Shown piece by piece: positions 1,404 to 62,106 of a DNA stretch of 64,000 nt. The stretch lies in sequence record NC_047749.1, one strand, 5' to 3'. Source of the stretch: Escherichia phage DT571/2. The stretch's first letter is position 1; the number at the start of each line of letters is the position of its first letter. Under the pieces are notes generated by a model, which was not told the DNA's origin, ran no database searches, and saw only the letters and a list, made by a program, of their open reading frames with translations. Made by a program: the position numbers and the translations under genes.

Positions 1404-3068
1404 TTACGCGAAAAATTTGCCGTTTTTAAAGTCGATTAACGTGCGCTGCCCGTTTGCATATGTAATTACATGCGTTTGCGTCCAGCTTGATGCGCCGACG
1501 TTGTAGCCCATATCGAGGCTGCCCGATACGCCAGCAGTATATACGCCGCCGTAAATGCTGGCGGTATGGGTGTGCCCCGTGTTTAATTTGCCCAACTTTT
1601 TAAATTGCTTCGGATTGCCGCGGCTCCCGTTGATGCCGTTGTGACCGTGTACGCCGCACTCAATGCCTGCAATCTTGAATGATTGATCAGTCGTTAGGAA
1701 TATGGCGTTAAACTCACAGCCTGCAACCTTGCGCAGCGCATAATCCAGCACGTTGAAAGTATCGTCATTTTCTGCAATAGCTCCATAGATCGCGGCGTTG
1801 AGGCGGTGATATAGCTCTGCGTTTGCTGGATCGTCTTTAATGTTAGCGTTGCGATCATCCAGCCAACGGGATAACGCCAGATCGTGGTTTGACTCAACAA
1901 TGATTGTTTGCGAGAAATCGCGCTCCATTGATTCCAATACACGCCCCGTGTCGATAAGATCATCTAAAACCTTATCACGTCCGGCGGCGTACTGTTTTGC
2001 TAGGAATACGCCAGATGCGCGATTGTGGTGGTTGCGTGATGTAAAGTCATGCACATCATGCACGAACTGATATTTAGGTTTAAGAATATCAAGCAAACTA
2101 TTTTCGCCCGCCCATGACGCTTCAGCACACGCCTTATCTAATTTTTCAGCGTGCACGTCGCCATACTGTAAACCTAAAACATGCCCCGATGTTTCATAAC
2201 ATCCGGCGGGAGTGGCGCAAATATTCAAATCATAAAAAACGCCGGTTTCATCCATCGTCTCAAGCTGGCGAACAAAAAATGCCCCGTCCTCGTCAAACTC
2301 GACAATCAGCGCGCCAAAGTTATGTAACGCTTCGGCCTTTTGCCCTGCTTTCTGCTGAATGTAGTTTTTTAGCGTTGCCGCTCCCGTTGAGTACATACGG
2401 CGCACTACTTCACCTTTGAGCGCTGGAACGCTTTCTGCGGTGATTTTAGCTGCTCCAATTGCCAAACCTTCAAGATCAAGCGCTGTTGCAGTCTCAGCGA
2501 ATCCAGAAAGCGGGTAGTCTGCCGTTGGCAAAACATTAATCTCAGCCATGAAAGCAAAGCGGCGACTATTTAAAAACACGTTTTTATTACAGATATATTT
2601 ATCAAAAGCGGAATCATATTTGATCCCGTCCGCACCTTCTCCATTCTGGAATCCTTTTTTGTTATAAATGAACTTGCTAACCAGCAAATCAGCGCCGATA
2701 AATTGGGCGTAATGTTCAAGTGAGGCTAAAAAGTTTTTATGCGGGAACGTGTTGTTCTGGATTGATGTTATAATGAAGCGTTTGCCCTGCTTTACTTCCC
2801 ACTGTTCAACCGTGCTAGAAATAATTCCCGCCGCCTCTGGGCGCTCGTCGTTTTTAACGGCTTTTGATGCTTTCGCCTCTTTTGGTTTCGCTGGTTTGTT
2901 TGCTTCCAGCCAATCACAAATTGCGGTCGAATGTTTTGCCGTATCGTACACCGCTTTTGATATATCGTCGCAGACTTCCAATCTAGTAGCGCGCAGACGT
3001 TTACCGTAAAAATTAAAATCAGCGGCCAGCTTCAGGATAACGGTTTGTTTTTCTGCGGAAATAACCAT
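1404..3068 (-). CDS. A1: pre-early protein A1-like, calcineurin-type metallophosphoesterase (probable nuclease)
   Basis: 554-aa ORF; phosphoesterase motifs GDVHAE, VESNHD, GVHGH, GHTHT; size and position match T5 A1. Confidence 0.8.
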   Translation of the reverse strand: MVISAEKQTVILKLAADFNFYGKRLRATRLEVCDDISKAVYDTAKHSTAICDWLEANKPAKPKEAKASKAVKNDERPEAAGIISSTVEQWEVKQGKRFIITSIQNNTFPHKNFLASLEHYAQFIGADLLVSKFIYNKKGFQNGEGADGIKYDSAFDKYICNKNVFLNSRRFAFMAEINVLPTADYPLSGFAETATALDLEGLAIGAAKITAESVPALKGEVVRRMYSTGAATLKNYIQQKAGQKAEALHNFGALIVEFDEDGAFFVRQLETMDETGVFYDLNICATPAGCYETSGHVLGLQYGDVHAEKLDKACAEASWAGENSLLDILKPKYQFVHDVHDFTSRNHHNRASGVFLAKQYAAGRDKVLDDLIDTGRVLESMERDFSQTIIVESNHDLALSRWLDDRNANIKDDPANAELYHRLNAAIYGAIAENDDTFNVLDYALRKVAGCEFNAIFLTTDQSFKIAGIECGVHGHNGINGSRGNPKQFKKLGKLNTGHTHTASIYGGVYTAGVSGSLDMGYNVGASSWTQTHVITYANGQRTLIDFKNGKFFA

Positions 3069-3165
3069 AATATTAAAACTCCATTAAAGGGATTAAGAAC
3101 GTTTGTTATTGGCAAATATTGCCAAATATAACGCTGCTTATTAACAGCGTTATAATTTGCAATAC

Positions 3166-3411
3166 TTAACTGATCGGCATCAGGCTAGAACTAACACCAC
3201 AAACAACGGCGGTAATAAAACAAAATAAGCCTAAACGCTTTGCTAACTTTGATTTGCGTTTAAAGTAATATGAATCCAGATCATTCTGGAAATAAGCGAA
3301 CAATAATGAGGCCGCTACAATAAATAAACCTAGAATTAACGATTCAGTGGGATAAAAGATCATTTTAATAATTCCAGTTAAAGGGAAATTATAGTGGGGA
3401 ATATTCCCCAC
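3166..3411 (-). CDS. small membrane protein
   Basis: 81-aa ORF with two hydrophobic segments. Confidence 0.5.
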   Translation of the reverse strand: MGNIPHYNFPLTGIIKMIFYPTESLILGLFIVAASLLFAYFQNDLDSYYFKRKSKLAKRLGLFCFITAVVCGVSSSLMPIS

Positions 3412-3420
3412 TAATTAAAT

Positions 3421-3837
3421 TTATTCACCTGCGGATTGTTTTACTTCATCTGCTACGCCTAGTAATTGCGCTACGGCGTCCAGCGTTTCTAATTTTGCGC
3501 TTTCCAGACTTGCCAGATCGTCGGCGTCTTTGATAATGCCGGAATCAATGGCATGTTTAGCAATAACGCGCACATAATGCGCCTTGCGGATTGAACTACC
3601 GCCGCCAACTTTGCGCGGTTTATCGCTTTTCTGATACGCTTTTGCGCTGGTCAATTTTGAGCGAACAGACACAGGGGAAGTAGCGCCCACTGTTTTGGCG
3701 ATCTCTTTCAGGCCGTCGCTGTTTGCGAACTCTAAACCGTTTTCATTGATTAATTGCTGATACATAGAAACGGCTTTTTGGGTATTTTCTTCATTCCATG
3801 CAAATTTTGCGGATTTTTCGGTTTTAACGTTAGTCAT
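3421..3837 (-). CDS. hypothetical pre-early protein
   Basis: 138-aa ORF, tightly packed in leftward operon. Confidence 0.55.
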   Translation of the reverse strand: MTNVKTEKSAKFAWNEENTQKAVSMYQQLINENGLEFANSDGLKEIAKTVGATSPVSVRSKLTSAKAYQKSDKPRKVGGGSSIRKAHYVRVIAKHAIDSGIIKDADDLASLESAKLETLDAVAQLLGVADEVKQSAGE

Positions 3838-4594: not shown

Positions 4595-5220
4595 ATCGTC
4601 GTCTCCTTATAAGGTTAATAAGTTTGCCGCCGATGGGCTTTAAAATGCACCTGATTTTTAAAGAGCGCGGCGGTAAACTTTCCGCCGTGTAGTTCGTCAT
4701 TGCCGCCCTACGAGATAAATAATAGGGAATACCCAAAAAAGGTGCAACCTTAATTTTGTAAAGAAATGTAAAGAAAGCAAATACCCGCACCGCGTCCGGC
4801 GATCGCCCAAGTTTAAAGGAAACAGGCGCGCGGATACCATAAAACCGAGCTGATTGGCAAGTAATTTTTTCATTTTTATTTGCCTTGCCCTACTTGACAA
4901 AACTTAAAAAGCTCGTGGTGACGATAAACGGGCTATCCCTTTATGATGGGATACCTGAAAAATTTACCGCGTTGTAGGACGTTTTAGGCCGCTTATCTTC
5001 GATTTAACAAATATTTAACAAAAGCAAAATTGAAAAATAGTTTGAGAAGGTATTGACTTTTTAAAATCAAGACTAAACGAGTTATTTTAAAAAATTAATT
5101 AATTGACTTTTATTTGTTGTTGTGTAGTAGAAAGATAGCAGACTAATAATTGCTAGAATGATAATCATGCTGGTGATTGTAACAGACTGAACTATTAGCA
5201 GACTACTGATCCCGGAAAAT

Positions 5221-5260
5221 CTCATTAGCCAACTAACTATCTCATTAGCCAACTAACTAT
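5221..5260. repeat. 20-bp direct repeat x2 (CTCATTAGCCAACTAACTAT)
   Basis: two identical adjacent copies. Confidence 0.9.
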
Positions 5261-5270
5261 TTCATAAGTT

Positions 5271-5450
5271 ATAATAACTATAAAAATAATCACCGTTAAA
5301 ATAATCACTATAAAAATAATCACCATTAAAATAATAACTATAGAAATAATCACCATTATAATAATCACCATTAAAATAATCACTATAAAAATAATCACCA
5401 TTAAAATAATCACTATAAAAATAATCACCATTATTATAATCACTATAAGA
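5271..5450. repeat. 15-bp tandem repeat, about 12 copies (ATAATCACYRTTAAA)
   Basis: read directly; the 68-aa ORF 5237..5443 is its translation artefact. Confidence 0.9.
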
Positions 5451-5486
5451 AACTATCGGCTTAAGTGAGAACCACTATCATTTAAG

Positions 5487-5568
5487 TTATCCACAACGTT
5501 ATCCACAGCACAAAATGATTTGACACGATAGGCGGCGATATAAAGATTTATCCACAGACTTATCCACA
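5487..5568. promoter_or_regulatory. DnaA-box cluster, 4 perfect TTATCCACA in direct orientation
   Basis: boxes at 5487, 5499, 5548, 5560; two imperfect boxes follow to about 5600. Confidence 0.7.
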
Positions 5569-5872
5569 GGTTATCCTACTGTATATTTATCCAGGGTAAA
5601 AAGATAGTGTTTACAACTGCAATCAATTTTGAGCGGCCTAAAACGCTTTCTAACGAGCTGATCGCTGTAGGGTAATATTAAAGTAAAGCCTTTACCCGTC
5701 GGCCTAGAGGCTTCGCCGTGTTTTGCTCTTTACTGCACCGCTGCGCGGTTAGCATAAAACTAGGTGTTAGGCAAGAAAAATAAAAAGTAAAGTAAACGTT
5801 GCCCCTAGAAAGAAAATAATTTTACCGGTAACATCGAAAGCGGGTAATAATTAACCTAATGTAAAGTTTTGT

Positions 5873-5901
5873 AAGGCCCGCCATAATCAGCGGCCTTTTT
5901 T
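5873..5901 (+). terminator. putative rho-independent terminator
   Basis: stem AAGGCC/GGCCTT with 13-nt loop followed by TTTTTT. Confidence 0.45.
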
Positions 5902-5965
5902 GTTATACTGCCCTTACACCGTTTAAGGACGGTTAAAAATTTCCCGAAAAATTTGGAGGCTTAAA

Positions 5966-6145
5966 ATGGTTATTTTTCGATCTATTCTGGCGGGTATCTT
6001 GGGCGCTATTTTAACTCTATTTGCTACCGCTTACGGTATTCAAGATTCTTATTGCGGTTTAGTAAATACTAAACCTATGGTTATTATTGGCGCGGGTATC
6101 GCTGTTTTTTCTTATTTGCTGGGCTGCATGAATAAAGGAGAATAA
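5966..6145 (+). CDS. small membrane protein (59 aa, not in ORF track)
   Basis: GGAGG SD then ATG; hydrophobic translation MVIFRSILAGILGAILTLFATAYG... Confidence 0.45.
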   Translation: MVIFRSILAGILGAILTLFATAYGIQDSYCGLVNTKPMVIIGAGIAVFSYLLGCMNKGE

Positions 6146-6147
6146 AA

Positions 6148-6360
6148 ATGATCCGCAACGTTTCTCTTGCTCGTTCCAAAGGTTTTAAGCTGGTGGATGT
6201 AAACACGTTCGAGCGTCCTGGTTGTAAAATCGAATATATAGCGCGGAATAAAAACGCTTTCCGCGTTACAGAAAAGAGATTCGATAAACGCGGCAACGTG
6301 ATAGCTGAAACGGTTAAATATTTTGCCACCTTTTACGCGGCCTTTCGTGGGGTATTATGA
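6148..6360 (+). CDS. hypothetical protein
   Basis: 70-aa ORF with AGGAG SD. Confidence 0.5.
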   Translation: MIRNVSLARSKGFKLVDVNTFERPGCKIEYIARNKNAFRVTEKRFDKRGNVIAETVKYFATFYAAFRGVL

Positions 6361-6482
6361 AGAGCGTTGTTATTGTTATCCTTGCAATGGTTGGCGGTTT
6401 TACCACCACCTTGTTTAGAAATGATCCTCTTTTGCTAGGGATCTTTATGCTTTTATCTGGTTATCTGATCGGGAGGTTATAA
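6357..6482 (+). CDS. small membrane peptide (41 aa)
   Basis: ATGA start/stop overlap with upstream ORF; hydrophobic. Confidence 0.35.
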   Translation: MKSVVIVILAMVGGFTTTLFRNDPLLLGIFMLLSGYLIGRL

Positions 6483-6483
6483 A

Positions 6484-6828
6484 ATGGTGATTTATGAAGG
6501 TGATCGCCTTGTTGCTGATTGCCGTCCGGCATTGTTAGCAAACTACTTAAACCAGCTTTCGCCAGTATATAAAGGCGTTATAAATATTTATGAAGGCGGG
6601 GCGCATTATAAGATTAATGCGGTCGTTGCCCGTGAACTAGCGTTTCAATTTTTAACCTTTTCATCTTGCAATATTCAGGTCATGGGTGAGGCGTTAATTG
6701 CAGAAAATGAAGATGATTTTATTAATATCTTTCGCAAGATATGCACCGAGCGCCTGATAATGAAAGGGGCATATATTCAATCCACTGCGGATAGTATTGA
6801 AACGGCTTTTCGAAAGGTGGCACAATGA
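6484..6828 (+). CDS. hypothetical protein
   Basis: 114-aa ORF with GGGAGG SD. Confidence 0.5.
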   Translation: MVIYEGDRLVADCRPALLANYLNQLSPVYKGVINIYEGGAHYKINAVVARELAFQFLTFSSCNIQVMGEALIAENEDDFINIFRKICTERLIMKGAYIQSTADSIETAFRKVAQ

Positions 6829-6966
6829 AGCTATATATTTTCGCGGGTAATGTTGAGGCTGCAAATGATTCCGCTGGTGGCGATAGCGTTCGCCATTATT
6901 GGCAAAATTATATTTACTAGGCGTAATGATCACGGGGCACAACTATCAGGGAGTGCCCCTGATTCT

Positions 6967-9809: not shown

Positions 9810-10138
9810 GCCTGCTGACTATTATCACTAACTTGTGTCTTTTTCTCTCTTCGTGGTTTAAAAGTTCCTGTAGTATTACTTTTACTAGGTTCTAATTTAT
9901 ACCACAGCATTCCTAGCTGGTTAACCATATGAGCAACATTTCTAGGGGTCAATGGCGGTAGGGATTCACAGTTTGATATCTCCCTTAATATATTAAATAG
10001 TTCTGCCTCTTTAGCTTTATTGTTTACTACCACCACGTACTCTAATGTTTCTACCTCAGAATCCTCATCCTTATAGTAGAGGCTAAGAGTAATTAAATTC
10101 TCCCCAGCAGGGGCTATTTTTGTTTTACCAAATATCAT
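9797..10138 (-). CDS. hypothetical protein
   Basis: 113-aa ORF. Confidence 0.5.
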   Translation of the reverse strand: MIFGKTKIAPAGENLITLSLYYKDEDSEVETLEYVVVVNNKAKEAELFNILREISNCESLPPLTPRNVAHMVNQLGMLWYKLEPSKSNTTGTFKPRREKKTQVSDNSQQAWDI

Positions 10139-10734
10139 TAACTACCTCTCTTATCTTCGTTAAGAGCAGCTCCTAGTGCTTCCATAATTGCATCTTCTAT
10201 ACTTCCATGCTTACTAGGATTGCTTAAGTGAATAGTATATGAGTTCCTAGAAACTCCAGAGTCCACAGGTGCTGCGCTTTTCCTATCAGACTCAAAAGCT
10301 TCTTGGGTATGTTTCAACTGTACAGAAGGCCCATAGTCTTCCCCAACTCGATAGGACTGATTAGACGACAGCGTACCACCGCAGGGAACATTGTGCAAAT
10401 CCGATGGATTATTTAATAGTGCAATACCACCTCTTGGCCACGAGTCACTAACATGAGTACTAGGACGGTTAACCTCAGTCTTCACGAGTTTATAACCAGC
10501 ATCTATTAATGCATTAATAAGGTTATCAGCTGGAATGCGAGCCTTGCCAAAAATCTCACGAGCGTTGTTGAGCCTACCTTCAAAACCTTTACATGCTCTA
10601 ATATTAGTGTGTGCAAAGGTTAGCTTCATAGATTTGAATTGTACAGTAGCAGTTAAATCTTTAAAGCTATAATCCCACGTATTCAGTTCATGATCTGGTA
10701 CTACTTGAATAGATTGCTGTGCATATAAAGTCAT
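10138..10734 (-). CDS. hypothetical protein
   Basis: 198-aa ORF; contains one copy of the 14-mer at 10393. Confidence 0.55.
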   Translation of the reverse strand: MTLYAQQSIQVVPDHELNTWDYSFKDLTATVQFKSMKLTFAHTNIRACKGFEGRLNNAREIFGKARIPADNLINALIDAGYKLVKTEVNRPSTHVSDSWPRGGIALLNNPSDLHNVPCGGTLSSNQSYRVGEDYGPSVQLKHTQEAFESDRKSAAPVDSGVSRNSYTIHLSNPSKHGSIEDAIMEALGAALNEDKRGS

Positions 10735-10919
10735 TATTTATTCTCCAGTTTGTCTAACAGCTTATGAGCTGCTAGATTATATTGTTTAAGCTCACGGTTA
10801 AGGCTTTGGTTCTCACTATTTAATTCTAGATTCTCTTTATTAAGAAGATTGCAAATAAATAGAAGTGCTAGTATAACTAGCAGGGAACCTACAAGCATTA
10901 AAAGAAAAAGACTTTCCAT
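10734..10919 (-). CDS. small membrane protein
   Basis: 61 aa with N-terminal hydrophobic helix. Confidence 0.5.
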   Translation of the reverse strand: MESLFLLMLVGSLLVILALLFICNLLNKENLELNSENQSLNRELKQYNLAAHKLLDKLENK

Positions 10920-11461
10920 TATTTTATCTCCAGTCTTAGCTTTGAAAACTTATTATACCAAACTATATGATTATCGTCAATTACAAATTTATGATAACAT
11001 GCTGGTACGGTATAAGTTCCATAATCCGTGACACGCTGCACAACCTTGTGTGCACACAGTCGACATCCATGCCCTTCTAAATGAGATCTAGCAGTCTGCC
11101 AGTAATAGCCCTCGTGATCTGGGCAATAGATTTCGACTTGCTGTTGCATTGTCTTATAATTTACACGTTCATACCCGAAGAAAGCCCCGTGAGCTGCAAT
11201 GGCTTTCTTGATAAATATAAGGTTTAGCGCTTCTTGTTGAAAATCGGGATGTAGCTGCTTAATCTTAGTTCTATTAATAGATCCATCCGATTTGATGAAC
11301 CTATTTATTGGAAAGTTGTTAGCTTCCTCGATTAATAATCCATTTACTTTCTCTCTCATATTAGATACTCTCACAACTAAGATGGAAACATTCGTAAGCA
11401 TCCCCAGTAAACTCTTTATCTTGTAACAAACACTTAGCCTGGTCTTCTGGTACTCCAGCAT
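10919..11461 (-). CDS. Cys/His-rich protein, possible zinc-binding nuclease-like; true start probably internal Met near 11359
   Basis: CPDHEGYYWQTARSHLEGHGCRLCAH cluster; N-terminal 34 aa of ORF look non-coding. Confidence 0.5.
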   Translation of the reverse strand: MLEYQKTRLSVCYKIKSLLGMLTNVSILVVRVSNMREKVNGLLIEEANNFPINRFIKSDGSINRTKIKQLHPDFQQEALNLIFIKKAIAAHGAFFGYERVNYKTMQQQVEIYCPDHEGYYWQTARSHLEGHGCRLCAHKVVQRVTDYGTYTVPACYHKFVIDDNHIVWYNKFSKLRLEIK

Positions 11462-11564
11462 CTAATAATTGTTGTTTACTTGGCTTTTCAGCGAATACTT
11501 TTACAAAATACTCGCCATCCTGATTATACTCATTTATATCTCTAGTAAGGACATATACTTGCAT
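11361..11564 (-). CDS. hypothetical protein
   Basis: 67-aa ORF. Confidence 0.5.
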   Translation of the reverse strand: MQVYVLTRDINEYNQDGEYFVKVFAEKPSKQQLLDAGVPEDQAKCLLQDKEFTGDAYECFHLSCESI

Positions 11565-11620
11565 TTGAAGTTCCTTGAAAACATAAAAGGCCAGAACAAT
11601 TAAGTCCTGGCCTCCTAAAA

Positions 11621-12058
11621 TTAATGAAGTTGTTTACCACTTCTTAACATAGTGGCCGTTTCCATAAGACCTAGCGTAGTATCACGCTTACTGATCTGTT
11701 TACCAAGTTCATCAGTACGTTTACTGATGTAAGCATTAATAGCCATATTCATAGCGGTAGCGAGATCTTCTTTGGTTATCTCTTCATCGTCTAAAGCTAG
11801 TTTAGCTAAAGAATCAAATGTGCTAGAGAGTCCTATAAGGTCTGAGGTTTCTCCAGCCAAAATAGGATTAATATTATCTACTGTTACTTCTAGCATGGAG
11901 TTAACAATATCTTCACCGTCTATTAGACCAAATTCAATATTACTCTCCCACTCCTTCATCTGTTCCAGCAATGGATTTTTCTTTTCTGTCATGATAGAGG
12001 TTTCCTGTGTCAGTTGGTAAGAAGGATGATTGTGTCTTAGGAGGATGTTGTTTAGCAA
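11621..12058 (-). CDS. hypothetical acidic protein (start possibly 11982)
   Basis: 145-aa ORF overlapping upstream gene. Confidence 0.5.
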   Translation of the reverse strand: MLNNILLRHNHPSYQLTQETSIMTEKKNPLLEQMKEWESNIEFGLIDGEDIVNSMLEVTVDNINPILAGETSDLIGLSSTFDSLAKLALDDEEITKEDLATAMNMAINAYISKRTDELGKQISKRDTTLGLMETATMLRSGKQLH

Positions 12059-28309: not shown

Positions 28310-28384
28310 TGGTGGGTCGGAGGAGAATCTAACTCCTACTCGTTAGCTTATGAGGCCACCGCTTTAACTTTAAGCTACCGACCC
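28310..28384 (-). tRNA. tRNA-Met (anticodon CAU)
   Basis: hand fold: perfect acceptor GGGTCGG/CCGACCC, perfect T-arm, D-stem GCTT/AAGC, loop CTCATAA. Confidence 0.75.
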
Positions 28385-28390
28385 TATGTT

Positions 28391-28479
28391 TGGCGGAAGA
28401 AGCGGGAATCGAACCCACAAGGCTATATTTCAAACCGACAGATTAGCAATCTGCTGCAATACCGTTATGCTATTCTTCC
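28391..28479 (-). tRNA. tRNA-Ser (anticodon GCU), class II
   Basis: hand fold: perfect acceptor GGAAGAA/TTCTTCC, anticodon arm GCAGA-TTGCTAA-TCTGT, long variable arm. Confidence 0.7.
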
Positions 28480-28500
28480 GAATTTATAAGATATATTATA

Positions 28501-29037
28501 TTAGAAATTTAGCTTCATAGCAAGAAAATTTTTCAAGTTTTCGGTAGACATCTCATCCACATCTACAGGAGAAACAAACCCATCTAATTGTCTAGCAAAT
28601 TTTTCACCGGCAGGATCATTATCCCCAACAGCTACCAATTTAAAAGGTAGTAATTTCAATTGCTTTAACAACGCTTTTCCGGGGGAAGAACCCAACATTG
28701 CTAGGGCAGGATAACCAGCATTATGTAATGCTACAGCCTTAAATACAGATTCAGCAATCAATACTACTTTTTCATCCCCATTGAGAGTTTCTAGCCCCCA
28801 TACACACTGTGTGGTAGAATAAGTAAAATATCTAGCTTCAGAGGGGCACTTACCATGACCTTTTGGAGCAGAAGGATTATAAATCTGATAGCCTCTCAGC
28901 ATCCCAGAGAAGTCGTACAATGGGACTGTTAGCCATCCCTCCGGGCTTAACCAGCAATGATATTTATCTGTATCAAACCCTCTGGATAAGAGATGTTCTG
29001 TTAGTTCATCAACAGTCATATTAGATTCCTCTCTCAA
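28501..29037 (-). CDS. small Toprim-like domain protein
   Basis: 178 aa; LIAESVFKA and VAVGDNDPAGEKFA resemble Toprim E and DxD motifs. Confidence 0.5.
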   Translation of the reverse strand: MREESNMTVDELTEHLLSRGFDTDKYHCWLSPEGWLTVPLYDFSGMLRGYQIYNPSAPKGHGKCPSEARYFTYSTTQCVWGLETLNGDEKVVLIAESVFKAVALHNAGYPALAMLGSSPGKALLKQLKLLPFKLVAVGDNDPAGEKFARQLDGFVSPVDVDEMSTENLKNFLAMKLNF

Positions 29038-29048
29038 ATTATAAATAT

Positions 29049-29077
29049 ATTATACAGAGAATTTAGCATTCAAGCAA
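29049..29077 (-). promoter_or_regulatory. T5-early-type promoter
   Basis: RC of TTGCTT-17-TATAAT. Confidence 0.55.
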
Positions 29078-29163
29078 TTGAATTTTTAAACTTTTTAGTG
29101 GAAAATCTCAAGACATTTAATGGCAGCACGTTGTTGCTGTAATAAGAGTATATGGTTCTAAAG

Positions 29164-29206
29164 AACCAAACAATAAAGCCCTGCGCTCTCCAGGGAACGC
29201 AGGGCT
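29164..29206 (-). terminator. rho-independent terminator
   Basis: 9-bp GC-rich stem AGCCCTGCG/CGCAGGGCT followed on the minus strand by a U-rich tract. Confidence 0.65.
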
Positions 29207-29230
29207 TACTTCAGAGATTACATGCGGGTG

Positions 29231-30178
29231 TTATTTGTTACGCATGTCCATGATCATCTGGCCATCGTAACCAGTTCCCACAACTGTTTGCGGTACACCA
29301 CCTTGATACTTCTGAGCACGAATCATTTCAACTTCTAGTTGTTTCCAACGAATCATCTCAGGAGTAATGGTACGTTGCAGAGCGGCGTTAGCCTCAGCTT
29401 CTTTCTTAGCTGCGTACAGTTTAGCATCTGCATCACGTTCGTTTGCAATAGCTTGGTTGTTACGAGCTTCACGATCTGCTTCTGCTTGTTTAACCTTCTG
29501 CTGTGCTTCTTGTTCAACACGAGCCAACTCAGCTTTCGCAGCATTAACTTGTTCTTCACGAACTTTGGTATTCTGTACCTGTTCCATGATTACAGGCGGC
29601 AAAGTAATATCCTGAAGGAACACTTGCTTAACTGTGTAACCATAAGGGCGTGCATACTCTTCAACTTCCTGTTGAATTGCAGTTTGTAATTGAGCCTGAA
29701 TTTTAGCATCAAACAAATCTTGTGCTTTAGGAACAGACTTGCCGAACTCACGAATAGTAGACAGTAATTTTTCAGTTACATATTTGTCTAACGCTTGATC
29801 CTGAGTACCTGCATTAATACGGTTAATCGGTGCCTTAGAACCATCAAATTGTAACATAACAGTCAGGTCAACAGTGGATTTAAACTTATCCTGACTAGGA
29901 ACCTGAAGTTTATCTAATTTTACAGCAATATCTTTTGTACTAAAAGTATCGAAAGATGCAAAGGGGTTTACAAGATGGAAGCCAGGTAATACTGGGTTAG
30001 GATCTACTTTACCAAGAAATGTTTGGGTTTTAACCGTACCATCGGAAACAATAGTATATGAATTAAAAGCTAGGATTAAACCTGCTAAACCAACTACAGC
30101 ACCAATACCCCAACGTTTAATAGTGCGCATTACTTTTTGCTCAGAAGTCAGTTCTTTCATATTTTTAGTATTAAACAT
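29231..30178 (-). CDS. SPFH/band-7 (HflC/prohibitin-like) membrane protein
   Basis: 315 aa; N-terminal TM helix, SPFH-like core, Ala/Glu/Lys-rich coiled-coil tail. Confidence 0.7.
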   Translation of the reverse strand: MFNTKNMKELTSEQKVMRTIKRWGIGAVVGLAGLILAFNSYTIVSDGTVKTQTFLGKVDPNPVLPGFHLVNPFASFDTFSTKDIAVKLDKLQVPSQDKFKSTVDLTVMLQFDGSKAPINRINAGTQDQALDKYVTEKLLSTIREFGKSVPKAQDLFDAKIQAQLQTAIQQEVEEYARPYGYTVKQVFLQDITLPPVIMEQVQNTKVREEQVNAAKAELARVEQEAQQKVKQAEADREARNNQAIANERDADAKLYAAKKEAEANAALQRTITPEMIRWKQLEVEMIRAQKYQGGVPQTVVGTGYDGQMIMDMRNK

Positions 30179-30212
30179 GTATTTCCTTTGTTTTAGTTAC
30201 AGTTAATAAAAT

Positions 30213-30287
30213 TGGCCGAGGTGACAGGATTCGAACCTGCATAAAGGAATTTAGAAGACTCCTGCCTCTCCCTTAGACTACACCCCG
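30213..30287 (-). tRNA. tRNA-Arg (anticodon UCU)
   Basis: hand fold: CCA, acceptor with one G-U, T-arm, anticodon arm GGAGT-CTTCTAA-ATTCC. Confidence 0.65.
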
Positions 30288-30788
30288 TTTAAGTATTTTT
30301 AAGAACTCTCGTAAAAACTCTTAAAAATACAGACGATACCGGGAGAGTCATAAGTCTCACTCATTAAGTATTTCAAGACAAAATACAGTAACGTCTATTA
30401 TTTTCCAGTTTAAGTCAAGGTGACTTAGTGGTTATGCCCTGCGGTATACTGAGGACTCGGTTAGGCTAGGGTCATGACTCCCCGCTTTTTGCTGCTACTC
30501 AACAGGAATTATCGCGAATTACCTGTGCTATTGTGCACCATTAGTGGCATCTCTCATGCCAGCATTTCCCACTTTGTGGATAGTTTGAAAAACTACTCCG
30601 ATATGGAGGGAGAACTTCACTATCCTAGAATACCTTCTAAAGTTCTTCTTTAGCCTGGACATAGTTAAATCGTAATAAAACTATTCAGCAGACTGGTTGG
30701 TTAGCCTGGAACCAACTACCGCGTGGTTTAGGCAGTGCGCAACTAACCTCGGAAGCTTTTACGTTAAAAGCACCAGTTATCCAGTTCT

Positions 30789-30860
30789 TACCGATCGTAG
30801 GATTCGAACCTACATCTTCCACCAGTTACGGCTTGATAATACCGTTTATACTAGATCGGC
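30789..30860 (-). tRNA. tRNA, CCA not encoded, anticodon undetermined
   Basis: perfect T-arm GTAGG/TTCGAAT/CCTAC and 7-bp acceptor with one G-U. Confidence 0.5.
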
Positions 30861-30935
30861 AGTGTTACTACATAAGTGATTTCCACACCCCACTATCAAT
30901 AAATTAGGGAAGAATTACTCTCTAATTTATGAATA

Positions 30936-30964
30936 TATTATACAGAATATATAAGCATTTAGCA
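30936..30964 (-). promoter_or_regulatory. T5-early-type promoter (leads into tRNA at 30789)
   Basis: RC of TTGCTA-17-TATAAT. Confidence 0.55.
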
Positions 30965-30973
30965 AATGAATTT

Positions 30974-31408
30974 TTAGAAAAATTCACTAGCAATCAGAGC
31001 GGCTGTTTTACCATCATAACGCCCTGGAAACTCTGCCTTAACAGTTTTCATTAAGAGAGCTTTGGTAATACCTGGGTTTAGCTTAACCAATTCTGCAAAA
31101 TATTTACGAATTTCAGTTTCAGTCAGTTGACTTGGCTGATACTCTTGCAGCATGAAATAAAGCAGTTGCTCGTAGTCTACATCAGTAGGAACTTTCGTAC
31201 CAACTTTAATAGCACGCTGCTTTGCAGTTTCTAGAGCTTTAATCTGGGCTTTCAGATAAGCTACGAACTCGGTTCGAGTAACAACGTCTTTATTAATGCG
31301 TTGCAAGTCACCAATCATAGTCTGGAGATTGATTGCCCGCTCTTTGTCACCGTGGATACGTGCTAGACTAAGCAGTCCACGAAGGGTCATTAGAATATTT
31401 TCACCCAT
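30974..31408 (-). CDS. hypothetical protein
   Basis: 144-aa ORF. Confidence 0.55.
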   Translation of the reverse strand: MGENILMTLRGLLSLARIHGDKERAINLQTMIGDLQRINKDVVTRTEFVAYLKAQIKALETAKQRAIKVGTKVPTDVDYEQLLYFMLQEYQPSQLTETEIRKYFAELVKLNPGITKALLMKTVKAEFPGRYDGKTAALIASEFF

Positions 31409-31578
31409 TATTTCATCCCCAATGCTTGGTTGAAAGATTGTTCTGTCATAACTGCTGAGACTTTGGCGAAATCAAACTTTTTAGGGTTCGTAGTGATCTC
31501 AGCAACGTTGGAAGTTTTAACAGTTTTCGTAGTACGAATACCGCGAGTGTTAACACCAATAATTACAACTGATTTCAT
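31408..31578 (-). CDS. small hypothetical protein (56 aa, not in ORF track)
   Basis: manual translation MKSVVIIGVNTRGIRTT...; GAGAGG SD; TAATG overlap with downstream gene. Confidence 0.45.
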   Translation of the reverse strand: MKSVVIIGVNTRGIRTTKTVKTSNVAEITTNPKKFDFAKVSAVMTEQSFNQALGMK

Positions 31579-31609
31579 ATTTCGCTTCCTCTCATTAATT
31601 TATGAAAGT

Positions 31610-31638
31610 ATTATACAGAAGTTTAAGTATTTAAGCAA
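31610..31638 (-). promoter_or_regulatory. T5-early-type promoter
   Basis: RC of TTGCTT-17-TATAAT. Confidence 0.55.
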
Positions 31639-31646
31639 ATAAATTT

Positions 31647-32096
31647 TTAAGTTTTAGTGACAGCAGGCTTATAAAATGTATGTCCCTTAATCTTGGTTGT
31701 TTTCTTAAACTTCTTTGTCCAGTATGGTTTATCTTTACCACTATGGAAGTATAAGGCCCCATGTGTAGGATCTTGTGGTAAATCAACGTAGTATATCACT
31801 CTAGCTAAATTCTTGGCGGTTTGCCAAGCCTCATCGGTTTTATCAACTTTTGGTCTCTTAGATACCCAAGAGAACTGGTTAGACTGATATACTACTTTAC
31901 AGTAGGAATCTGGGAATTTACCGGAGTTTACACGGTTTTTAGTAACGTGTGCAATCGCCGTCATTCCCTTTATGCCCTCACCACGACTTTCGAAATAGAT
32001 ATTTTTAGCAATGCAATCTATTTCTTTTGCATCGTGCGATGCTTGACTACTAAAGCTGAAGGTAAGGGCAGCTACTAAAAGCAAAGCTGCCTTCAT
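31647..32096 (-). CDS. secreted cell-wall hydrolase (SleB/CwlJ-like)
   Basis: 149 aa; signal peptide; NIYFESRGE and VTKNR motifs. Confidence 0.6.
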   Translation of the reverse strand: MKAALLLVAALTFSFSSQASHDAKEIDCIAKNIYFESRGEGIKGMTAIAHVTKNRVNSGKFPDSYCKVVYQSNQFSWVSKRPKVDKTDEAWQTAKNLARVIYYVDLPQDPTHGALYFHSGKDKPYWTKKFKKTTKIKGHTFYKPAVTKT

Positions 32097-39539: not shown

Positions 39540-41975
39540 TTAAATAGTACAACCGCCTGATGCACAACCGGCTGCTTCTTCACCAGCCCCACCACCATTT
39601 GCAGTGTTGAAGTTAGCATAATACCAAGTTTTCCACCCGTATTTAACAGCAGTCATGAAATCACGAACTACTACTGGGCCAGGAATAATTTCATTCTCAA
39701 ACTTGGTGTAGTCATAGTACATATTCGTACTGATAGACTGACTGAAGAATTTCTGCATAGTTGCTACCCATTTGATCCATTCAATACGATCCACATCGTA
39801 AGCCAGTTTATAGCTCATGAGAGTATCCCAATCAGTTGCACCTGGAGCGATTGCAATTACTTTATTCACTGCACTACCCTTAATAGATACAATCTTACGG
39901 GGTGGTTCAATAGAGTTAGTAACCCCTAACAGAACGGAAGAACTTTCTCCTGGCATCTGAGCAGTCAGAACAGAGTTACGCATACCGTATTTCAGAATAT
40001 CTGCACGCAGAGATTCCCAATCCATTTCTAGACCTACTGATACCAGCTCATCAACAGTTTTCTTGTACGTGTCGATTACCAGAGTTCCTTTGGATGGTTT
40101 AGTACGATTAAACCATTCACATGCACCTTGCTCTTTGGCTAGACGTACAGAGGCTTTATGCAGGAAGTAAGACAGTTTTTCAGCTTCACGATGAATCCAG
40201 TTACGTGCTTCAACGCCTTCATAAGCCAAACCTTCCGCCGCCATTGCACCTGCTGCGTTCATCAGACCAATACCAACGTTACGACGTTTCTTAGCTGTAT
40301 ATTCCATAGTTGGGAACGGATAATCCTGAATTTCAATAATTGTATCAACGAATTTCAGGAGGATGTAGCAAGTTTTTTCCCACTCAGCCAGAGATTCCAT
40401 GCGTCCAAGTACAACACCACCTAAGTTACACAGAGATACTTCACCAATATCCTCCGGCTTCATTTGATCAAGTTGTTCTTTTGTTTTATACAGCTCTGTA
40501 ATGTGGTGGAATGGGCGTGTAGGCTGATTAATTTCAAGGCATAAATTACTCATACGGATTGGATCAAGGAAGTTACCGTGACGATTAGATTCCCCGATGT
40601 GGTGCGCATACATACGTCCTGTTTCCATTCTGATACGTAGCCAAGTATCTAGGATTTCTTTTGCAGAGACTTTAGGAGCTGCTGGAACTGTTTTTCCTTC
40701 ATGGTCGATCTTTGTAAGAGATGCCACACGTTTCTCCGCTGCCACATAGATTTCTTCAAATTTAGCCTCGTCATCACTATAAAACGCTTCATGAACTTCT
40801 GGAGCATAGAAGTATGACATTAGCGTAATATCTTCATTTTTCAGATAACGTTTTAACAAAAGATTATTAAAGTTCAGAGAATAATCCATCTTATCGATTT
40901 TATTCTCGTCTGTAGCACGTTGCTGCTTAACCTGCATCAATTGGATGATTTCAGGGTCAAAGTAAGGATAGGATACAGTAGCAGAACCACCACGAGTTTG
41001 CTGAGTATTAGCCTTTACTGATCGGTCAATGTGTCGATAATATGGCAGTTTTCCGGAATGCGGGAATGCCCCGTTTCGCACCGGATCAGCAATTGATCGG
41101 CTTTCAAGATGATACCCGATTCCCGCTCTGGCTGCAACCATTTTGAAGACGATGTGTTCGGCTGTGTCGATTGAATCCAATGTGTCAGTGGAATCAACGA
41201 GGCAACAACTAGCAAATCCACGGTCACTAGAGCGCAAGCCAACCAATGGCGGCGTAGGAACGTTGATCTTGTGGAGCGACATTGCATTGTAGAGATCGAT
41301 TGCATCTAGAATTGTCCAATTAGGTTGAGATAACATCGCCATTGCCATACCCATATAGGCAAATTGCGGGGTTTCGTAAATTTCGCCAGTTGCGATATTA
41401 CGACGGGAATACTTATCAAAGAATTGTTTCAGTCCTCCACTAGTGAAAAGACGGTCGCGATCATGGTCGATAACCTGATTCAGAGCTTCAAATTGCTCAT
41501 CGGTAATCCATGCACTCATGTCTTCCCATGCACCTACACTAACCATATGATCGTGGAAGAAGCGTAGGGAAGGTGGTTCGAAGGAATCATAAAGACGTTT
41601 ACGCATCTGCGCAAGACGTAATTCCTTTGCGGGCACGTCGTATGCTGGGTTATCTTTGATAAGACTTTCAGCAGCTTTAATTAACGCATCCATCAGAGTA
41701 TCGGAATCTACAACCCCTTTAGGTAGAGTTTTTTGAGCAGCCATAGTAATGGCTGACCAACTTACATCAACTGTTTTGCAACCATACTCTGCCCAACCAT
41801 TGAGTTTTTCAGGAGCAAAGTCTTCTACAGTACCGTCACGTTTAATTACTTTTTCAATGCGATGGCTCATTTGGTTTTCCTTTTTATGGTTATCAGGATT
41901 TAGGAAATAGTTTACTTTATTCTCAGTCATTTGGCAAATAAAATTTTCTGATAGAAAAGGCCCGAGTATTTTCAT
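39540..41975 (-). CDS. nrdA: ribonucleotide reductase class Ia alpha subunit (start may be an internal Met)
   Basis: 811 aa; ATP-cone VIKRDGT, catalytic Cys blocks, C-terminal CxxC tail. Confidence 0.9.
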   Translation of the reverse strand: MKILGPFLSENFICQMTENKVNYFLNPDNHKKENQMSHRIEKVIKRDGTVEDFAPEKLNGWAEYGCKTVDVSWSAITMAAQKTLPKGVVDSDTLMDALIKAAESLIKDNPAYDVPAKELRLAQMRKRLYDSFEPPSLRFFHDHMVSVGAWEDMSAWITDEQFEALNQVIDHDRDRLFTSGGLKQFFDKYSRRNIATGEIYETPQFAYMGMAMAMLSQPNWTILDAIDLYNAMSLHKINVPTPPLVGLRSSDRGFASCCLVDSTDTLDSIDTAEHIVFKMVAARAGIGYHLESRSIADPVRNGAFPHSGKLPYYRHIDRSVKANTQQTRGGSATVSYPYFDPEIIQLMQVKQQRATDENKIDKMDYSLNFNNLLLKRYLKNEDITLMSYFYAPEVHEAFYSDDEAKFEEIYVAAEKRVASLTKIDHEGKTVPAAPKVSAKEILDTWLRIRMETGRMYAHHIGESNRHGNFLDPIRMSNLCLEINQPTRPFHHITELYKTKEQLDQMKPEDIGEVSLCNLGGVVLGRMESLAEWEKTCYILLKFVDTIIEIQDYPFPTMEYTAKKRRNVGIGLMNAAGAMAAEGLAYEGVEARNWIHREAEKLSYFLHKASVRLAKEQGACEWFNRTKPSKGTLVIDTYKKTVDELVSVGLEMDWESLRADILKYGMRNSVLTAQMPGESSSVLLGVTNSIEPPRKIVSIKGSAVNKVIAIAPGATDWDTLMSYKLAYDVDRIEWIKWVATMQKFFSQSISTNMYYDYTKFENEIIPGPVVVRDFMTAVKYGWKTWYYANFNTANGGGAGEEAAGCASGGCTI

Positions 41976-59538: not shown

Positions 59539-62106
59539 TTGAAAATCGCAGTAGTTGATAAAGCTCTAAACAACACTCGTTACGATAAACATTTCCAGCT
59601 ATACGGCGAGGAAGTTGATGTATTCCATATGTGTAACGAGAAGTTGTCCGGTCGTTTGCTCAAAAAGCATATTACTATCGGGACCCCGGAAAACCCATTT
59701 GACCCGAATGATTATGATTTTGTTATACTGGTAGGTGCCGAACCTTTCCTGTACTTTGCGGGTAAGAAAGGTATTGGTGATTATACTGGTAAACGTGTAG
59801 AGTATAATGGATATGCTAACTGGATTGCTAGTATCAGCCCAGCCCAGCTACACTTTAAACCTGAAATGAAACCAGTTTTTGATGCAACAGTAGAGAATAT
59901 CCACGATATTATCAATGGTCGTGAGAAGATTGCAAAAGCTGGTGATTACCGTCCTATTACTGACCCCGACAAGGCAGAAGAATATATCAAGATGGTGTAT
60001 AATATGGTTATCGGACCTGTCGCATTCGACTCCGAAACCTCAGCACTATACTGTCGAGATGGTTATCTGCTTGGTGTTTCTATGTCTCACCAAGAGTATC
60101 AGGGTGTATATATCGATTCTGATTGTCTTACAGAAGTTGCAGTATATTATCTCCAGAAAATTCTGGATAGTGAAAACCATACTATTGTTTTTCACAACTT
60201 GAAGTTTGATATGCACTTTTATAAGTACCATCTGGGACTTACTTTTGATAAAGCACATAAAGAACACAGGCTCCATGATACCATGTTGCAGCATTATGTT
60301 CTAGATGAACGTCGTGGTACTCATGGCTTGAAATCTCTAGCAATGAAGTATACCGATATGGGTGACTATGACTTCGAACTAGATAAGTTCAAAGATGATT
60401 ACTGCAAAGCACATAAAATCAAGAAAGAAGATTTCACCTATGATTTGATTCCATTTGATATTATGTGGCCTTACGCTGCAAAAGATACAGATGCTACCCT
60501 ACGTTTACACAACTTCTTTTTACCAAAAATTGAGAAGAATGAAAAACTTTGCAGTCTGTATTACGATGTTCTAATGCCTGGTTGTGTATTCCTACAGCGT
60601 GTCGAAGATCGTGGCGTACCTATCTCTATTGATCGTTTGAAAGAAGCTCAGTATCAATTGACTCATAATTTGAATAAAGCCCGTGAGAAACTGTACACTT
60701 ATCCAGAAGTTAAACAGCTAGAACAAGATCAGAATGTAGCATTTAACCCGAACTCTGTTAAACAACTTCGTGTTCTTCTATTCGATTATGTTGGTTTGAC
60801 TCCAACTGGTAAGTTAACGGATACTGGTGCAGATTCTACAAACGCAGAAGCTCTGAATGAACTGGCAACCCAGCATCCGATTGCTAAAACTCTTCTAGAG
60901 ATTCGTAAGCTGACTAAGCTGATCTCTACTTACGTTGAGAAGATTCTACTGAGTATTGATGCAGATGGTTGCATTCGTACTGGTTTCCATGAACATATGA
61001 CTACTTCTGGTCGTCTGAGTTCTTCTGGTAAACTGAACCTGCAACAGCTACCTCGTGATGAATCTATCATTAAGGGTTGTGTAGTTGCACCACCTGGATA
61101 CCGTGTAATCGCATGGGACTTAACAACTGCGGAAGTTTATTATGCTGCTGTTCTATCTGGTGATAGAAATATGCAACAAGTATTTATTAACATGAGAAAT
61201 GAACCTGATAAATACCCTGACTTCCACTCTAACATCGCCCACATGGTATTTAAATTGCAATGTGAACCTCGTGATGTTAAAAAGTTATTCCCAGCTCTGC
61301 GTCAAGCAGCTAAGGCAATTACCTTTGGTATTTTGTACGGTTCTGGCCCGGCTAAAGTAGCACATTCTGTTAACGAAGCATTGCTAGAACAAGCAGCCAA
61401 AACTGGGGAACCATTTGTTGAATGTACTGTTGCAGATGCTAAAGAGTACATTGAGACTTACTTTGGTCAATTCCCACAGCTTAAGCGTTGGATTGATAAG
61501 TGCCACGATCAGATCAAGAATCATGGATTTATCTATAGTCACTTTGGTCGTAAACGTCGTCTGCATAATATCCACTCCGAAGACCGTGGTGTTCAGGGTG
61601 AAGAAATCCGTTCTGGATTTAACGCAATCATTCAGTCTGCTTCTTCTGATAGTCTCCTTTTAGGTGCTGTAGATGCAGATAATGAGATCATTTCTCTTGG
61701 CCTAGAACAAGAGATGAAGATTGTTATGCTGGTTCATGACTCCGTAGTTGCTATTGTTCGTGAAGACTTGATTGATCAATACAATGAGATCCTGATTCGT
61801 AATATTCAGAAAGACCGTGGTATCAGTATTCCTGGCTGTCCAATTGGTATTGATTCAGATTCTGAAGCTGGAGGTTCTCGTGACTATTCTTGTGGTAAGA
61901 TGAAGAAACAGCACCCATCAATCGCTTGTATTGATGATGACGAATATACTCGTTACGTTAAAGAAATGCTTCTTGATTCTGAATTCGAGTATAAGAAATT
62001 AGCTGCAATGGATAAAGAGCATCCAGACCACAGCAAGTACAAGGATGATAAGTTTATTGCTGTATGTAAAGATCTGGATAACGTGAAAAGGGTTCTCGGT
62101 GCTTAA
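59539..62106 (+). CDS. family A DNA polymerase (T5 DNA polymerase-like, TTG start)
   Basis: 855 aa, the size of T5 Pol; 3'-5' exo motif FDSETSAL and Pol A motifs. Confidence 0.9.
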   Translation: MKIAVVDKALNNTRYDKHFQLYGEEVDVFHMCNEKLSGRLLKKHITIGTPENPFDPNDYDFVILVGAEPFLYFAGKKGIGDYTGKRVEYNGYANWIASISPAQLHFKPEMKPVFDATVENIHDIINGREKIAKAGDYRPITDPDKAEEYIKMVYNMVIGPVAFDSETSALYCRDGYLLGVSMSHQEYQGVYIDSDCLTEVAVYYLQKILDSENHTIVFHNLKFDMHFYKYHLGLTFDKAHKEHRLHDTMLQHYVLDERRGTHGLKSLAMKYTDMGDYDFELDKFKDDYCKAHKIKKEDFTYDLIPFDIMWPYAAKDTDATLRLHNFFLPKIEKNEKLCSLYYDVLMPGCVFLQRVEDRGVPISIDRLKEAQYQLTHNLNKAREKLYTYPEVKQLEQDQNVAFNPNSVKQLRVLLFDYVGLTPTGKLTDTGADSTNAEALNELATQHPIAKTLLEIRKLTKLISTYVEKILLSIDADGCIRTGFHEHMTTSGRLSSSGKLNLQQLPRDESIIKGCVVAPPGYRVIAWDLTTAEVYYAAVLSGDRNMQQVFINMRNEPDKYPDFHSNIAHMVFKLQCEPRDVKKLFPALRQAAKAITFGILYGSGPAKVAHSVNEALLEQAAKTGEPFVECTVADAKEYIETYFGQFPQLKRWIDKCHDQIKNHGFIYSHFGRKRRLHNIHSEDRGVQGEEIRSGFNAIIQSASSDSLLLGAVDADNEIISLGLEQEMKIVMLVHDSVVAIVREDLIDQYNEILIRNIQKDRGISIPGCPIGIDSDSEAGGSRDYSCGKMKKQHPSIACIDDDEYTRYVKEMLLDSEFEYKKLAAMDKEHPDHSKYKDDKFIAVCKDLDNVKRVLGA

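Follow-up and report, generated by a model that had tools for sequence, protein, structure and literature searches.

What does a T5-like bacteriophage gain from a membrane protein related to the prohibitins of eukaryotic cells, encoded next to its tRNA genes? The question is raised by a 64,000-nucleotide stretch of Escherichia phage DT571/2 (record NC_047749.1; the whole stretch is referred to below as the window), in which one open reading frame (ORF), at 29231..30178 on the minus strand, specifies a protein of the SPFH (stomatin/prohibitin/flotillin/HflK-C) superfamily and is the only SPFH ORF of the 64 kb, with no second SPFH gene or paralogue there. The gene is the orthologue of T5.080 of bacteriophage T5. 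The explanation favoured here, at a probability of roughly 0.55 for the explanation as a whole, is that members of the T5.080 family are accessory early SPFH proteins that would build a cage from their own subunits and confer a conditional benefit by fencing off a piece of membrane. The gene and the segments of its product are located as follows.

29231..30178, minus strand: SPFH/Band-7 coding sequence (315 amino acids plus stop), ATG start, T5.080 orthologue.

30184..30189, minus strand: Shine-Dalgarno sequence AAGGAA, 5-10 nt before the ATG, in the context AAACAAAGGAAATAC-ATG.

30050..30109, minus strand: N-terminal signal-anchor or transmembrane helix, approximately residues 24-43, predicted from hydropathy and the AlphaFold2 (AF2) model.

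29504..30025, minus strand: SPFH (Band_7) domain, residues 52-225, from Pfam, AF2 secondary structure and Foldseek.

29309..29596, minus strand: helix 195-270 and helix 273-290, counterparts of the CC1/CC2 wall-and-cap helices of SPFH cages, from AF2 and Foldseek.

29234..29308, minus strand: conserved C-terminal tail (Y291, GGVPQTVVG, D311, R313), a candidate cap-forming segment, from alignment columns.

The region is nearly that of Escherichia phage DT57C (Tequintavirus, Demerecviridae), to which positions 28400-31500 of the window are 99.8% identical and positions 28501-30300 are 100% identical. The protein is 100% identical to DT57C protein AJA41578 (DT57C_000058 / ACQ32_gp125, with the record note 'hypothetical protein T5.080, putative membrane protease') and shares 99.4% amino-acid identity with T5.080 (AAS77126). 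The AGGA core of its Shine-Dalgarno sequence lies 7-10 nt upstream of the ATG. That the ORF is a real gene follows from the pairwise ratios of nonsynonymous to synonymous substitution rates (dN/dS) among T5-like phages, which range over 0.016-0.09: 0.016 between the DT57C-type gene and T5, 0.06 against Stitch and YZU-L1, and 0.09 between Stitch and YZU-L1. The gene is under strong purifying selection, and its interpretation as a decaying moron was rejected because dN/dS is far below 1.

Membership of the superfamily is supported by both domain and structure searches. Pfam PF01145 (Band_7) matches the protein over residues 52-225 with 64.2 bits (cut-off 23.6) and E 2e-17. The AF2 monomer model, built on 30 homologues and with a mean predicted local distance difference test score (pLDDT) of 78, has a helix at residues 12-38, an alpha/beta SPFH core at residues 41-192 (beta-rich, with helices up to residue 192), an unbroken A/E/Q/K-rich helix of 76 residues (195-270; ~11 nm) and a second helix at 273-290, with pLDDT values of 75-91 across the last two. 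In Foldseek searches against the PDB, the model aligns over 270-305 columns with the cage subunits of erlin1/2, prohibitin, HflK/C, stomatin, QmcA and flotillin (probability 1.0, E 1e-14 to 1e-8); probability 1.0 is reached for more than 40 solved SPFH chains, plus isolated stomatin SPFH domains (4fvj, 3bk6). As modelled, the protein has the full architecture of cage-forming subunits, namely a membrane helix, a core, a wall helix, a second helix and a tail. Within the family, constraint is greatest in the SPFH core, the long helix and the C-terminal tail, whose columns are invariant or near-invariant in the alignment. A first-pass annotation, made from the letters of the window, had described an ORF with an N-terminal transmembrane helix, an SPFH-like core and a long Ala/Glu/Lys coiled coil. 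All three parts were recovered here, the helix by the hydropathy peak at residues 25-43 and the AF2 helix, the core by the Band_7 and Foldseek matches, and the coiled coil by helix 195-270. The homology to SPFH proteins, whose absence would have refuted that description, is clear.

The same N-terminal segment is the sole strongly hydrophobic one in the protein (Kyte-Doolittle maximum 1.79 at residues 25-43), and its hydropathy peak is kept across 30 homologues, which supports membrane attachment. The tail that precedes it (residues 1-23) is basic, with six lysines or arginines (K/R) and a net charge of +4, versus two K/R and a net charge of 0 in the flank that follows; K/R are more abundant before than after the hydrophobic segment in 30 of 30 homologues. 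By the positive-inside rule applied to these flanking charges, the prediction is a cytoplasmic basic N-tail, with the SPFH core and the coiled coil on the periplasmic side, as in the HflK/C orientation. Some short-headed homologues have an N-terminus resembling a classical signal peptide. The protein falls in phrog_200 of PHROGs (E 6e-87), which carries the label 'lipoprotein', also used by RefSeq. This label was rejected: the protein has no cysteine, hence no lipobox, and is therefore not a lipoprotein. Among the aligned family sequences (query counted), 25 of 30 are cysteine-free. Scans of the protein against NCBIfam, HflK/HflC models included, and against the defence families of PADLOC returned no family at E <= 1.

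Among the SPFH proteins of known structure, the nearest by sequence are QmcA (3e-7), PHB2 (1e-4), PHB1 (4e-4) and HflC (8e-3), and comparison with these systems places the T5.080 family within the SPFH superfamily closest to the prohibitin/erlin/HflC type. The best structural matches are the prohibitin PHB1/PHB2 and erlin1/2 cages (8rrh, 9o9z, 9vvj; E 1e-14 to 1e-12), and in sequence searches PHB2 and PHB1 match best across the SPFH core. The likeness extends to the N-terminal anchor and to a cage on the non-cytoplasmic side of the membrane, both cage and orientation being predicted for the phage protein. However, identity is only 16-19%, and the eukaryotic cages are hetero-oligomers of two paralogues versus a single gene in the phage. 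The HflK/HflC-FtsH assembly of E. coli (7vhq, 7wi3, 9cz2) has the same subunit fold and the same N-in/periplasmic orientation as predicted for the phage protein, but an equivalog-level match is missing, the similarity to HflC is confined to the coiled coil, and HflK and HflC form an adjacent paralogue pair whereas the phage gene stands alone, flanked by tRNA-Arg and a terminator. Orthology with HflK/HflC was accordingly rejected (no NCBIfam match, HflC at E 8e-3, no second SPFH gene). QmcA-YbbJ of E. coli (SPFH-NfeD, 8z5g) gives the top PDB sequence match and is a homo-oligomeric cage made from one SPFH gene; most of this match falls within the coiled coil (profile positions 155-253), a stretch of low complexity, and the NfeD partner is absent beside the phage gene and its bacterial homologues, which is a difference from the PH1511-PH1510 pair as well.

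Relatives of the protein were sought in two large protein collections. A word-indexed search of 5.8 billion proteins gave 159 matches, of which those with a named source are nearly all labelled phage proteins, many on contigs of 100-180 kb, and a full hidden Markov model search of 1.84 billion cluster representatives gave 1910 matches with E <= 1e-3, of which 329 have E <= 1e-10. Judged by sequence similarity, the T5.080 relatives are a compact subfamily inside a very large superfamily. Outside the T5-like phages, it includes proteins of RB43-group T4-like phages (of Klebsiella, Enterobacter, Cronobacter, Citrobacter and E. coli) at 74-80% identity, of Aeromonas T4-like phages at ~60% and of N4-like Vibrio phages at ~34%. 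The T4-like proteins are 60-80% identical over their full length and share the succession of transmembrane helix, SPFH core, coiled coil and tail, but belong to an unrelated family (Straboviridae), where their genes lie in the tk-rI hyperplastic region and not in a tRNA cluster. Pfam matches for three of them (RB43ORF139c, Aeh1ORF064c and 44RRORF098c) were listed in 2006 (PMC1524935), and the T5 record itself cites the similarity of T5.080 to T4-like phage SPFH proteins. A structure search of BFVD extended the occurrence of SPFH proteins to numerous further phages and to giant viruses.

Cellular members of the subfamily also exist. Chromosomal homologues occur in Morganella/Providencia at 57-59% identity (58% for the comparison made here) and, at 31-41%, in Methylococcaceae and Methylophagaceae (33-41% in both), Desulfocapsaceae and others; those of Morganella/Providencia and of the Methylococcaceae/Methylophagaceae have the same length and architecture and are likewise solo genes, differing from the phage gene in being cellular and in non-prophage contexts. 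The Morganellaceae chromosomal copy is thus a member of an otherwise phage-dominated subfamily. Two bacterial loci were examined closely. One, the Morganella/Providencia locus (homologue at 5968-6939), has decarboxylase, permease, TetR and alcohol dehydrogenase genes on one side and a HlyD/C39-ABC exporter of bacteriocin type on the other; the second is a trpFBA-accD-folC-SPFH-oxidoreductase cluster. A prophage origin was rejected for both in view of these housekeeping or metabolic neighbours, among which Pfam found no NfeD. Clustering of the flanking ORFs of 61 bacterial loci revealed no NfeD, protease or recurrent partner; the clusters obtained reflected lineage-specific synteny, apart from one of generic ABC ATPases, and the same three were absent next to the SPFH gene in the phage contexts (DT57C, T5, T4-like and Vibrio loci).

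The gene is retained with great regularity and is nevertheless dispensable in laboratory infection. By tblastn, the protein is found in 726 phage records, ~428 of them at >=90% identity and 10 more at 80-90%; T5-type DNA polymerase at >=80% identity is found in ~442 records. Comparison of ~428-438 with ~442 indicates that almost every T5-like genome keeps the SPFH gene. Dispensability is deduced from three observations. The sequenced T5 st0 strain has an 8.5-kb deletion that joins T5.068 to T5.081 and removes T5.080. In the CRISPRi-ART screen of T5, T5.080 was targeted by 7 guides and classed as 'Not Fit', with a mean fitness of -4.28 and p 0.85 (supplementary file 16 of PMC11879866). Finally, phage NG_S8 carries a natural in-frame deletion that fuses residues 1-17 to 276-315 and leaves a 55-residue remnant (locus 2462-2629), which makes this phage a knockout provided by nature.

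These features can be combined into a tentative course of events. Early in infection, a sigma-70 promoter would drive a transcript that begins with RNAX, continues through tRNA-Arg and has the SPFH gene as its final cistron before the hairpin. The basic N-tail of the protein would stay in the cytoplasm while the SPFH and coiled-coil parts would be placed on the periplasmic side, where the protein would self-assemble, without other subunits, into a ring or dome around a patch of inner membrane. The fenced membrane would then have a membrane function protected, or particular membrane proteins would be shielded from host quality control. The purpose, suggested with low confidence, may be a conditional advantage in natural hosts and not an essential step of infection. 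Several considerations weigh against this explanation. The ring or cage is deduced from full-length homology only, and the tail, the segment needed to close a cage, is modelled as two short beta-strands at pLDDT <50. The topology is a prediction of the positive-inside rule and not an experimental result, and QmcA, the top sequence match, is reported to have the opposite orientation and to face the cytoplasm. Early expression and co-transcription are presumed from the T5 annotation and from a match to the promoter consensus. As to dispensability, the authors of the CRISPRi-ART screen state that guide consistency is lower outside the T5 pre-early region. Lastly, a search of the literature on T5.080 and on SPFH proteins in phage infection found no functional study, client or phenotype, and published work calls the role of phage SPFH proteins unclear; T5-like phages were not covered by HIDEN-SEQ.

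The transcription unit to which the gene is assigned comprises the following elements, the last of which overlaps the terminator.

30937..30965, minus strand: sigma-70-like promoter TTGCTA-17-TATAAT, at the position of T5 P16-17, with 10/12 consensus matches.

30288..30923, minus strand: RNAX, a stable RNA of 636 nt, transferred from DT57C rnaX (record 30992-31627, offset 704).

30213..30287, minus strand: tRNA-Arg(UCU), found by ARAGORN, with 49.3 bits to the Rfam tRNA model, annotated in DT57C and T5.

29166..29207, minus strand: terminator-like hairpin and U-rich tail, with a 13-bp stem (29207..29176) containing 8 G-C pairs.

29183..29190, minus strand: GAGAGCGC, a motif located in the hairpin's 3' arm and agreeing in sequence with the T5 single-strand-interruption consensus.

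In the T5 record, promoter P16-17 stands immediately upstream of RNAX, and the corresponding sequence at 30937..30965 is the presumed start of the RNAX - tRNA-Arg - SPFH unit, its activity in this phage being presumed from the sequence match. T5.080 has the same setting as the present gene, following RNAX and tRNA-Arg and preceding the same hairpin. Inside RNAX, a tRNA-like element at 30788-30861 is read by ARAGORN as tRNA-Ser(ACT) and scored at 39 bits by the tRNA model of Rfam; outside this element, RNAX matched no Rfam family at the gathering threshold. The offset used to transfer positions to the DT57C record (KM979354) is -704 at the SPFH gene and has changed to +528 by the DNA polymerase, which lies at window 59539-62106 and shows 99.6% identity, so that the window holds ~1.2 kb more than that record between 30 and 59 kb.

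The hairpin lies downstream of the SPFH stop codon, its stem (29207..29176) being followed by the tail UAUUGUUUGG, in which the U tract is interrupted. Its folding energy is -25 to -27 kcal/mol (z-score -3.3 to -4.2), and none of 200 shuffled sequences folds equally well, although terminator-like sites are no more numerous in the region than chance predicts (2 seen versus 1.5 +/- 1.2 expected). T5, Stitch and YZU-L1 each form a hairpin of 12-13 pairs at the same position, where the sequence of NG_S8 can be aligned with theirs; in Epseptimavirus each arm has one nucleotide fewer, a paired 1-nt indel that is the sole difference. RNAalifold found zero compensatory pairs and thus no covariation support, so that conservation of the hairpin rests on each sequence folding separately. 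The 34-nt gap between tRNA-Arg(UCU) and the SPFH start codon holds no promoter, and for this reason the hairpin most likely closes the whole unit from promoter through RNAX and tRNA-Arg to SPFH, as far as the sequence tells. The first-pass annotation had credited the gene with a strong terminator of its own; the 13-bp hairpin with its U-rich tail is indeed stable, but this putative terminator most likely serves the RNAX - tRNA-Arg - SPFH unit and not SPFH only. The annotation 'efficient bidirectional terminator' in T5 refers to a second, neighbouring hairpin and not to the one conserved here. This second hairpin and the convergent genes T5.077-079 are present in T5 (locus 9900-11740) but missing from the corresponding window positions 29100-29180, where all that is left is the very end of T5.079, a few bases long, and a small hairpin, GGTTCTAAAGAACC.

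The conserved hairpin coincides with a feature of the DNA itself. The major nick of T5, at 32.6% of the genome, is annotated at 39746..39747, which is the homologous A-G step, at 29187/29186 in the window, and the motif GAGA/GCGC (the slash marking this step) is invariant in the hairpins of the five phages compared, T5, Stitch, YZU-L1 and NG_S8 included. One sequence may therefore act both as an RNA terminator and as a predicted DNA nick site.

Beyond the terminator, the gene is followed by the orthologue of a T5 gene with a documented role in defence evasion.

28501..29019, minus strand: T5.076 orthologue (Toprim-like; Rad), the next gene downstream, with its own P15a-like promoter at ~29044-29111.

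This gene is outside the SPFH transcription unit and is named 'DNA primase' in RefSeq. T5.076 is Rad, a retron anti-defence protein, according to Azam et al., and the CRISPRi-ART annotation of T5.076 reads 'subverts retron-mediated defense' (PMC11879866). Since its next gene is the Rad orthologue, the SPFH gene stands at the edge of the T5 anti-defence, tRNA-rich island. Azam et al. also describe an ~8-kb 'anti-defense island / tRNA-rich region' that is lost in T5n and SP15m and that supplies a tRNA-Tyr against retron-Eco7 and an anti-AVAST-2 activity. The 8.5-kb deletion of T5 st0, T5.080 included, agrees with this island in size and position. The downstream neighbour is not the same in all relatives. 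In YZU-L1 (Epseptimavirus), a NadR-like NMNAT+AAA_28 enzyme (locus 2709-3764) is encoded next after the SPFH protein, and in GAP161, an RB43-like T4 phage, an NMNAT+NUDIX enzyme (locus 5063-6118) takes this place. These two enzymes of nicotinamide adenine dinucleotide (NAD) salvage share 22% identity and are not orthologous, so that the adjacency arose twice; a jointly transferred SPFH-NAD-salvage module was rejected on the same ground. Compared with the present gene, epseptimaviruses have, in addition to the NadR-like gene downstream, an extra ORF of 66 amino acids (VKTRYIVKVVGEHSQ...) upstream, between tRNA-Arg and the SPFH gene and 11 nt from the latter; it occupies 1289-1489 in two loci (one of them YZU-L1) and 2250-2450 in NG_S8, and is absent from the window and from T5. 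Two further neighbours deserve mention. At 31647-32096 (minus strand), the T5.083 orthologue encodes a cell-wall hydrolase of the SleB type whose signal peptide, MKAALLLVAALTFSFSSQA, is evident; its RefSeq name is 'endolysin', yet the gene belongs to the early region and is distant from the lysis genes. The tRNA at 28310-28384 (minus strand) is tRNA-Met(CAT) for ARAGORN versus tRNA-Ile(CAU) in DT57C and T5, where it is presumably lysidine-modified.

Other functions can be imagined for such a protein, and two had been put forward by the first-pass annotation: remodelling of host HflKC/FtsH complexes and superinfection exclusion. Neither could be an essential role, since T5.080 is deleted in the viable strain T5 st0. 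In the former, the phage cage would capture FtsH, or would replace or poison HflK/C, and so alter substrate degradation. HflK/C subunits are indeed among the full-length structural matches (7vhq, 7wi3, 9cz2), the predicted periplasm-facing orientation equals theirs, and prohibitin, the nearest type, cages a protease, namely an AAA protease in mitochondria. Nevertheless, the nearest solved relatives are prohibitin and erlin rather than HflK/C, NCBIfam gives no HflK/HflC match, and the relation to HflC is marginal (E 8e-3, in the coiled coil only), which makes co-assembly with HflK/C unlikely. Furthermore, a paired paralogue is missing, the gene is non-essential and the literature searched holds no FtsH-related data for T5.080. 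Remodelling of HflKC is therefore considered an unlikely explanation. Superinfection exclusion, in which the protein would block the DNA entry of other phages, is in keeping with its presumed early synthesis and predicted membrane location, the exclusion proteins known so far being small and situated in the inner membrane or periplasm. Against it, the SPFH protein is unlike those of the Imm, Sp, Sie, Cor and Llp types, T5-like phages already have functions of the Llp/Cor type (the annotation shows a Cor-like gene at a distance of 4 kb), and to our knowledge there is no precedent for an SPFH cage in exclusion, so that this role appears highly improbable, the least probable of those considered. 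Slightly better odds, still very low, are given to a regulator of lysis timing or of the envelope, a periplasmic cage that would hold or stabilise a holin, antiholin, spanin or cell-wall enzyme. The idea draws on gene order: the SPFH gene comes right after the lysis-inhibition genes rI and rI.-1 in RB43-like T4 phages, is ~3 kb from rI in phiAS4, and lies 1.5 kb downstream of the signal-peptide SleB-like hydrolase (T5.083) in T5-like phages. However, adjacency is weak evidence in hyperplastic accessory regions, the Aeromonas and Vibrio phages have other genes beside it, and the examined stretches of the T5 and DT57C records have no annotated rI homologue.

The genomic context suggests a counter-defence factor that would neutralise a membrane-associated host immune system or hide from it, such as a system by which the inner membrane is sensed or attacked. 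T5.080 is inside the T5 st0 deletion agreeing with the anti-defence, tRNA-rich island, and conservation in nature combined with dispensability under laboratory conditions is a usual mark of anti-defence genes. NAD-salvage genes, a class that counters NAD-depleting defences, follow the SPFH gene in Epseptimavirus and GAP161. The region holds the tRNA-Tyr active against retron-Eco7, Rad and the anti-AVAST-2 determinant, as given by Azam et al. Yet all this is guilt by association: PADLOC and other defence-related homology are lacking, and the bacterial homologues are in housekeeping contexts. In the text of Azam et al. consulted here, moreover, none of the retron-rescuing fragments F6, F7 and F8 is reported with the SPFH gene, and from it the loss of exactly T5.080 in T5n or SP15m could not be confirmed. 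A counter-defence function is thus held to be doubtful, about on a par with HflKC remodelling. The same low odds apply to a bolder variant that merges host takeover with counter-defence, in which a cage would fence a periplasmic-side patch of membrane and thereby blind an immune sensor or effector, or withdraw FtsH from its substrates. If true, it would explain the near-universal retention of the gene in T5-like phages and its exchange with T4-like and N4-like phages, as well as its anti-retron, tRNA and NAD-salvage neighbours and its dispensability on laboratory E. coli. The accessory membrane-fencing cage of conditional benefit is preferred over each of these.

As an annotation, the present result is ordinary and a re-discovery, since the SPFH domain call is already in GenBank, as 'SPFH domain / Band 7 family protein' (slur09, VAH1) and 'PHB domain-containing protein' (UPEC03), and SPFH proteins have been known from phage and giant-virus genomes since 2006. 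Its location in the anti-defence, tRNA-rich region of T5 nevertheless makes the gene a reasonable experimental target. Near-universal in T5-like phages, found at 60-80% identity in T4-like phages, constrained in sequence, deletable and situated in a counter-defence region, the family is a good test case, and identifying a client of T5.080 would show how a virus profits from a prohibitin-like membrane compartment of its own making inside a bacterial cell.

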